Virus genome (UHGV): UHGV-0149439 | Origin: a virus | DNA: 29,037 bases | Strand: one strand, 5' to 3' | Shown: positions 17,885 to 17,989 of the stretch, piece by piece | Layout of the letters: each line of letters opens with the position of its first letter | Numbering within the stretch: position 1 is the stretch's first letter | The notes under the pieces: model-generated | What the model was told of the DNA's origin: nothing | Databases searched by the model: none | The model's input: the letters and a program-made list of their open reading frames with translations, nothing else | Program-made: the position numbers and the translations under genes

Positions 17885-17956
17885 GAAAAGGCCGCCCGTG
17901 GGCGGCGTAGGTGTAACAGGAGAGATTATGTGTCGGCCACTGCTATAGCCGACACC
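17885..17956 (-). ncRNA. Candidate ~70-nt small RNA, possibly Fur-controlled
   Basis: Minus-strand TTGATA-17-TAGTGT promoter candidate inside a Fur-like box. Then an 8-bp hairpin (17930-17955), a 23-nt linker containing UCUCUCCU, and the GC hairpin GCCGCC-CACG-GGCGGC followed by CUUUUC. Confidence 0.3.
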
Positions 17957-17967
17957 TCCACACTAAC

Positions 17968-17989
17968 GCGAATGATAACCATTATCAAT
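17968..17989. promoter_or_regulatory. Second Fur-like box
   Basis: GCGAATGATAACCATTATC matches the Fur consensus at 16/19. The 17-mer TGATAACCATTATCAAT differs at one base from the box at 16717-16733. Confidence 0.5.

Follow-up and report, generated by a model that had tools for sequence, protein, structure and literature searches.

A conserved small ORF behind a putative Fur-controlled promoter and a structured leader in a lambdoid prophage

The DNA analyzed here, a stretch of 29,037 nucleotides that we call the window, is a lambdoid prophage whose closest phage relatives in GenBank are the Citrobacter phages Chris1 and phiNP. In the region of interest, the holin genes, a GH19 endolysin gene, and a spanin-like ORF are followed by the gene for a lipoprotein with a TonB C-terminal domain (TonB_C; positions 16746-17075, plus strand; Pfam E = 1.9e-13, lipobox FLMGC), the gene for an Ivy lysozyme inhibitor with its own terminator (17205-17627), the stretch 17885-17989, a cosQ-like GGGTCCT (18073-18079), and the genes for a DUF1441 small terminase and a GpA large terminase. 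The PHROGs name for the TonB_C family, 'Rz-like spanin' (phrog_1267), looks like a misnomer. The AT-rich sequence TTGATAATAATTCCC, which precedes the cosQ-like motif (stretch 18047-18079), is slightly Fur-like, yet it aligns with the flank of cosQ in phage 21 and is part of the conserved cos module.

Two sequences in the 29-kb window match the Fur consensus with three or fewer mismatches, compared with 0.01 expected from shuffled sequences. One of them, GCGAATGATAACCATTATC (17968-17986, minus strand), agrees with the consensus GATAATGATAATCATTATC at 16 of 19 positions, as an initial annotation of this DNA had reported. The same annotation had described its core as a 16/17 copy of a box further upstream, and this held as well: TGATAACCATTATCAAT (17973-17989) matches TGATAATCATTATCAAT (16717-16733) at all but one position and in the same orientation. 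This first box (16712-16733, plus strand) is located 13-30 nt upstream of the GTG start codon of the TonB_C gene and belongs to a separate module. The sequence ATTGATAATCATTATCAATTGAGG is present upstream of TonB_C homologues in six diverged variants and is missing from the homologues of the phage-21 type and of Klebsiella; the latter lack both the box and the unit described below. As a speculation, a periplasmic mimic of TonB under the control of iron could act against TonB-dependent phages or colicins by blocking them at times when their receptors are induced.

The box at 17968-17986 coincides with a predicted sigma-70-type promoter on the minus strand (17960-17988), which the initial annotation had also proposed. 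Its -35 element TTGATA (17988 to 17983) and -10 element TAGTGT (17965 to 17960) are separated by a 17-nt spacer, and the box fills the spacer and overlaps the -35 element. Transcription is predicted to start near 17953-17956 and would run on the strand opposite to the phage late genes. The promoter is conserved in all diverged copies of the locus that we recovered (see below). In an alignment of seven variants (alignment A5), the -35 element is always TTGA(T/A)A and the pattern T-A-x-x-x-T of the -10 element is always kept; the -10 sequences TAATAT and TATTAT of the relatives are nearer to the consensus than the TAGTGT of the window. The spacer, and with it the Fur box, is almost invariant among the diverged copies, and a Fur box overlapping the promoter is present in every one of them, with 17 of 19 consensus positions in the loci L168, L170, L179, and L185. 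Judged from their sequences, promoter and box are conserved as part of one unit. A role of the box on the plus strand was dropped, since neither a promoter nor an ORF was found in that direction.

These features suggest that Fur controls the minus-strand promoter. Other proteins can also bind Fur-like AT-rich palindromes, so that promoter and leader could be real while the box is conserved as a spacer or is bound by a different regulator. We consider this improbable: the match of 16 or 17 out of 19 positions persists in every lineage, the conservation goes far beyond what a plain spacer would need, a second independent module of the same prophage has the same box, and only 0.01 such sites are expected by chance in a window of this size.

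The region between ivy and cos had been described as free of ORFs. We identified there a conserved ORF of 55 codons plus stop codon (MVAKNKRHCQRIARSFFSPKVPKLTHPTTNKAPEYVSVSSENGALLIHLVPTEDN; 17876 to 17709, minus strand), hereafter ORF55, which has a GGAG ribosome-binding site and an ATG start codon and opens 14 nt past a GC-rich hairpin encoded on the same strand. The full length of ORF55 matches the family phrog_4843 (E = 1.5e-7), with residues 1-53 aligned to positions 1-55 of the 59 in the profile. A HMMER search with ORF55, in which 1.84 billion proteins were scanned, identified a predicted protein of 57 amino acids (P0009) with 72% identity (E = 3.8e-15); phrog_4843 is also matched by P0009 (E = 1.5e-8) and by an ORF of 59 codons, ORF59, from phage 21 (E = 4.4e-47). 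The reading frame is open in every copy, with a length of 55-58 codons, and the lineages differ by in-frame indels of 9 nt and 6 nt. In deep comparisons the dN/dS ratio of ORF55 is 0.15-0.21, the lowest among the six frames. This evolutionary constraint argues that ORF55 is a real gene with a predicted protein product. The N-terminal half of this product is basic. Its AlphaFold model is poor (pLDDT 62, pTM 0.23) and has a basic N-terminal helix and a C-terminal beta-hairpin. Searches with ORF55 against Pfam and PADLOC gave no match, and a word-index protein search was empty. Gene callers skipped ORF55 in contigs of the window type, and in many records the ORF is absent or annotated on the wrong strand, which is why the gap looked like sRNA territory. 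A type I toxin-antitoxin arrangement with a 22-codon ORF on the plus strand (17761-17829) was considered and dropped, as the frame of the latter is unconstrained.

We then asked how far the conservation around ORF55 extends. The window's segment 17719-17994 recurs with ∼84% identity in L168 and L170, where it directly follows the TonB_C gene, without ivy, and stands beside a different terminase; the source of L170 is Citrobacter sp. CK184. Both loci were found via contigs that encode homologues of the neighboring TonB_C protein. Homology with them (∼76-86% identity) runs from ∼17991, just upstream of the -35 element and the Fur box, to the stop codon of the ORF, and the flanks on both sides are unrelated. 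A third clade was recovered from contigs encoding P0009 (L179-L185) and by a scan with a degenerate pattern (L186-L191), and it has no TonB_C gene nearby. Altogether, there are at least eight diverged variants of the unit in other prophages. A further 16 loci were recovered, and every one of them has the box and the leader together with an intact ORF. When 92 sources were searched with a covariance model of the leader, there were 10 matches, each directly upstream of the ORF and none alone. The unit accompanies packaging modules of the DUF1441/GpA, Terminase_2/6N, and Terminase_4/TerL types, with or without the TonB_C gene. Hence, the stretch from promoter to stop codon (17709-17991, minus strand), which in the window is inserted between the ivy terminator and the cos module, appears from these comparisons to be a self-contained unit that moves between phage backgrounds.

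Other searches returned little. Eighty phages that have the small terminase of the window lack the unit, and homology with them begins only at ∼18040. When 17640-18230 and 17673-18045 were compared at the DNA level with phages, plasmids, and complete E. coli genomes, only the cos and terminase side was matched and leader and ORF were not; in 5,426 complete E. coli genomes, the stretch 17885-17989 had no match. Two exact-pattern scans of 185,579 species-representative genomes had zero matches, the sole match in a metagenome scan was a contig 100% identical to the window, and early scans of viral contigs returned one near-identical copy and an unrelated Fur box only. The near-identical copies were uninformative because they vary too little. 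Covariance-model searches built from a single sequence yielded terminator-like noise only.

The distribution of these modules also bears on the likeness of the two Fur boxes. The initial annotation had offered as an alternative that the boxes are scars of recombination or insertion around a single cassette (16715-17989) and have no regulatory role, and indeed a 16/17 direct repeat in the same orientation stands at both ends of the accessory-gene region. The comparison refuted this idea, to which we give hardly any credence: the region is composed of three independently mobile modules, one with ivy and two in which TonB_C and the small ORF are each accompanied by their own box. The ivy unit (17127-17672; gene, upstream region, and terminator) occurs alone in an unrelated HK97-type prophage (L002, 5923-6467, 98.7% identity) and is missing from L168 and L170, where the TonB_C gene adjoins the small-ORF unit. 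L169, L177, and L178 have TonB_C and its box but lack the small-ORF unit, and L179-L185 have the latter, box included, but lack TonB_C. Moreover, the position of each box within its promoter is the same in all variants. The two boxes are alike because both match the Fur consensus.

The hairpin of the ivy terminator (17645-17672; AAACCGCC-TCAG-GGCGGTTT) is flanked by an A-run and, on its other side, by a T-run. The convergent minus-strand transcript of the small ORF may end here as well, though with a poor U-run. In the clade of L179, the small ORF has a clear terminator of its own.

The RNA predicted to begin at the minus-strand promoter folds well. A 72-nt RNA has a folding energy of -32 kcal/mol (z = -4.2), and its layout is the one laid out in the initial annotation, all elements of which are found in place. 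Hairpin 1 (GTGTCGGC..GCCGACAC; 17930-17955, minus strand) has 9-11 bp and the loop AGCA and would form at or near the 5' end of the transcript, where a hairpin is a typical stabilizing feature. It is followed by a linker of 23 nt (17907-17929, minus strand) that is predicted to be single-stranded and is unpaired in RNAalifold; in alignments A5 and A9 the linker contains an invariant UCUCUCC (17925 to 17919), whose flanks vary in sequence and length. With a start near 17964, a few bases earlier, part of the linker pairs in folding with a GGAG at the 5' end, a pairing not conserved in the relatives. Hairpin 2 with its tail (17885-17906, minus strand) consists of GCCGCC-CACG-GGCGGC (17906 to 17891) and CUUUUC (17890 to 17885) and has an energy of -12.1 kcal/mol. 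Its stem is invariant in all copies, and the loop varies between CACG, UCCG, and UUCG. The tail reads CUUUUC, UCUUUC, or UCUUUA and has at most 3-4 consecutive U in every copy, so the short U-tail that had been noted as a weakness of the terminator in the window is common to all relatives. A terminator scan of the window did not call hairpin 2. It resembles a terminator and may act as a partial attenuator or as a stabilizing stem.

Comparison across homologous prophages, which had been proposed as a check, revealed that the hairpins are conserved. RNAalifold recovers the two hairpins described above and a third one at the start of the ORF. In hairpin 1, two pairs have compensatory changes on both sides (G-C to C-G and C-G to U-A), two further pairs change from G-C to G-U, and 95% of the cells are paired. 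The stem of hairpin 2 is invariant and therefore yields no covariation evidence. In alignment A5 as a whole, three pairs are changed on both sides and 94.7% of the cells are paired, compared with 30-50% when the partners are slid against each other; the covariation comprises few independent events in about eight distinct sequences from three clades. The promoter and leader also diverge less than the synonymous sites of the ORF (Fisher p from 3.5e-6 to 4e-3 in five deep comparisons). Between the window and L168, for example, divergence is 14% in promoter and leader versus 44% at synonymous sites. The leader probably does more than connect the promoter with the ORF.

Hairpin 3 (17864-17889, minus strand) is predicted between the U-run that follows hairpin 2 and an A-run in codons 4-5 of ORF55, and it would enclose the GGAG (17884 to 17881) and the ATG (17876 to 17874). 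ViennaRNA and RNAalifold predicted it independently. One of its pairs changes from C-G to A-U, on both sides, and another from U-G to C-G, and two pairs are broken in 2-4 of the 7 sequences. Between the window and the L168 and L170 types, codons 1-9 are identical, with zero synonymous changes; the deeper variants differ there. No competing antiterminator structure was found.

The initial annotation had interpreted 17885-17989 as the gene for a Fur-repressed base-pairing sRNA of ∼70 nt. Part of this stands: the promoter with the Fur box, the two hairpins, and the linker are all present and conserved. What was not supported is the proposal of a free-standing RNA, because the conserved unit extends to the stop codon of ORF55 and the putative terminator has only 3-4 U. 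We therefore regard as improbable an sRNA that ends at the GC hairpin and for which the ORF is irrelevant. Purifying selection acts on the downstream ORF, which was present behind every copy of the leader. As homology begins only at the Fur-box promoter, the ORF has no other conserved promoter, and the terminator is weak in every copy. Known RNA families did not favor an sRNA either. A search of the window with Rfam gathering thresholds matched no family at 17885-17989, and a permissive search of 17600-18250 gave a full-length alignment to PrrF with 19 bits (gathering threshold 90, E = 1.1) and no match to RyhB. Most of the PrrF score is contributed by the Fur box and the terminal hairpin, which indicates an analogous layout and not homology.

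We rather favor, with somewhat better than even confidence, the interpretation that a small Fur-repressed accessory gene ('moron') has its control region and 5' leader at 17885-17989 and that this stretch is not primarily the gene of a free-standing sRNA. According to this model, Fe-Fur of the host would sit on the spacer and the -35 element and block the sigma-70 promoter when iron is present, and the promoter would fire when iron is scarce, independently of prophage induction. The transcript would contain, in this order, the 5'-terminal hairpin, the single-stranded stretch with UCUCUCC, the invariant GC hairpin, and only 3-4 U, and would continue into the GGAG, the ATG, and the phrog_4843 ORF (17876 to 17709). 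As the ORF lies 14 nt past hairpin 2 and lacks another conserved promoter, transcription must pass this hairpin, and RNA polymerase would read through it in at least a fraction of cases. When it does so, the U-run of the longer RNA would pair with the A-run of codons 4-5 and hide the ribosome-binding site and the start codon, so that translation of ORF55 is probably gated by hairpin 3, too. Acting as a leaky attenuator, the GC hairpin could release some short leader RNA. Several observations speak against our preferred model. An invariant GC stem followed by U's in front of a ribosome-binding site looks like an intrinsic terminator, and if it were efficient the short RNA would be the main product. 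Furthermore, the model assigns no role to the invariant UCUCUCC, which would fit the seed region of a regulatory RNA. The failure of gene callers to report ORF55 in contigs of the window type, the small number of independent covariation events, and, in distant relatives of the phage-21 type, a frameshifted variant and mostly non-synonymous substitutions count against it as well.

Alternatively, the locus could have two outputs, with the attenuator hairpin giving rise to a leader RNA of ∼65-75 nt as well as the longer mRNA, and the leader acting in trans via UCUCUCC. The exposed UCUCUCC resembles an anti-ribosome-binding site and is a candidate for pairing with host or phage mRNAs during iron starvation. 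We think of this as a minority possibility. It would explain why the GC stem is invariant while its loop is free and U's come next in every copy, why the leader is more conserved than synonymous sites, and why UCUCUCC, in a part of the leader with no predicted pairing, does not vary; the overall layout, too, resembles that of Fur-controlled sRNAs, the PrrF alignment at 19 bits not being significant. On the other hand, the U-run of 3-4 U is short and interrupted by C, and the expected efficiency of termination is consequently low. Hfq binds sRNAs at their 3' ends, and the short U tail speaks against an RNA of the Hfq-dependent class. None of the 10 leader copies found in the 92 sources was without the ORF, and a conserved sequence in codons 4-5 would compete for pairing with the U-run. 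A scan for duplexes of the linker within the window returned its own antisense only, and there was no convincing trans target among the other sites of the window (best non-self duplex -17.5 kcal/mol). The more specific version, in which leaky termination frees a Fur-controlled riboregulator of ∼70 nt whose UCUCUCC pairs with host ribosome-binding sites while read-through yields the small basic protein, seems to us rather unlikely.

The nearest functional precedent for our preferred interpretation, by analogy, is stx1, an accessory gene of Stx1-converting lambdoid prophages whose promoter is under Fur control: it contains a Fur site and allows expression at low iron without induction (PMC8065619). 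Like stx1, ORF55 is a lambdoid-prophage accessory gene that is situated in the late region and has its own promoter with a Fur site, which here is predicted from sequence. Unlike the stx1 toxin, the predicted product is a protein of 55 amino acids encoded next to cos on the strand opposite to the late genes; its mRNA would have a leader of ∼78 nt with three hairpins, and there is no sequence relationship to stx1.

With RyhB of enterobacteria and PrrF of Pseudomonas, the locus shares the layout of a Fur box over a sigma-70 promoter, a hairpin, a pyrimidine-rich unpaired stretch, and a GC hairpin followed by U's. Unlike in these sRNAs, the U tail has 3-4 nt and is not long, a conserved ORF with a ribosome-binding site begins 14 nt past the hairpin, and the leader is found only together with this ORF. 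Of the features typical for the RyhB/PrrF type, the Fur box over the promoter is thus present, whereas an efficient terminator with a long U-run and a match to the family model were not found. Short regulatory RNAs are also encoded by other lambdoid prophages of enterobacteria, including Esr41, AsxR, AgvB, IpeX, and IsrK, for none of which sequence similarity to the leader was found; some of them bear on iron uptake, with Esr41 acting on cirA, chuA, and bfr (PMC8065619). Our literature search found no description of a Fur-regulated prophage sRNA. If a leader RNA were released alongside the small basic protein, the layout would resemble that of FsrA of Bacillus, which works with the small Fur-regulated Fbp proteins.

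A more distant relative of ORF55 is present at the right end of phage 21, where tblastn identified a sequence with 36% identity. As in the window, the phrog_4843 ORF of phage 21 is situated between lysis or accessory genes and cos, is oriented against the late genes, and comes after a TonB_C gene of the opposite strand. The phage-21 type differs from the window in having no Fur box at up to three mismatches and no such leader, and an ORF of 83 codons with a clear signal peptide is located upstream instead. In phage 21 (L090, OL657228.1), these two ORFs of 83 and 59 codons are unannotated and run against the late genes at 149-641, and the 59-codon member of phrog_4843 has a strong ribosome-binding site. 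The phage-21-type stretch is present in 1,223 of the 5,426 complete E. coli genomes; at this stretch, RefSeq records of E. coli annotate a 60-amino-acid ORF on the opposite strand (WP_000881610.1). Substitutions among phage-21-type copies are mostly non-synonymous, with too little variation for a coding test, and a 1-nt insertion in one E. coli variant (L094) causes a frameshift in ORF59.

If our interpretation is correct, the prophage would have placed two separate genes under the control of the iron sensor of its host, one for the TonB_C lipoprotein and one for the small protein. This would add to the short list of iron-responsive prophage genes, of which stx1 is the classic example. The biology is incremental and not surprising, and the main value of the locus is as a pointer to iron-responsive accessory genes of prophages and to an under-annotated family of small proteins. 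About one in five complete E. coli genomes has a prophage with a member of phrog_4843, an uncharacterized family on which the unit described here offers a testable handle.

Elsewhere in the window, the Rfam search had a single match above threshold, to the Hfq-binding sRNA family isrI (14564-14660, plus strand; 47.5 bits at a threshold of 45 bits). It lies immediately before the holin genes, in the place expected for the late promoter with its leader.
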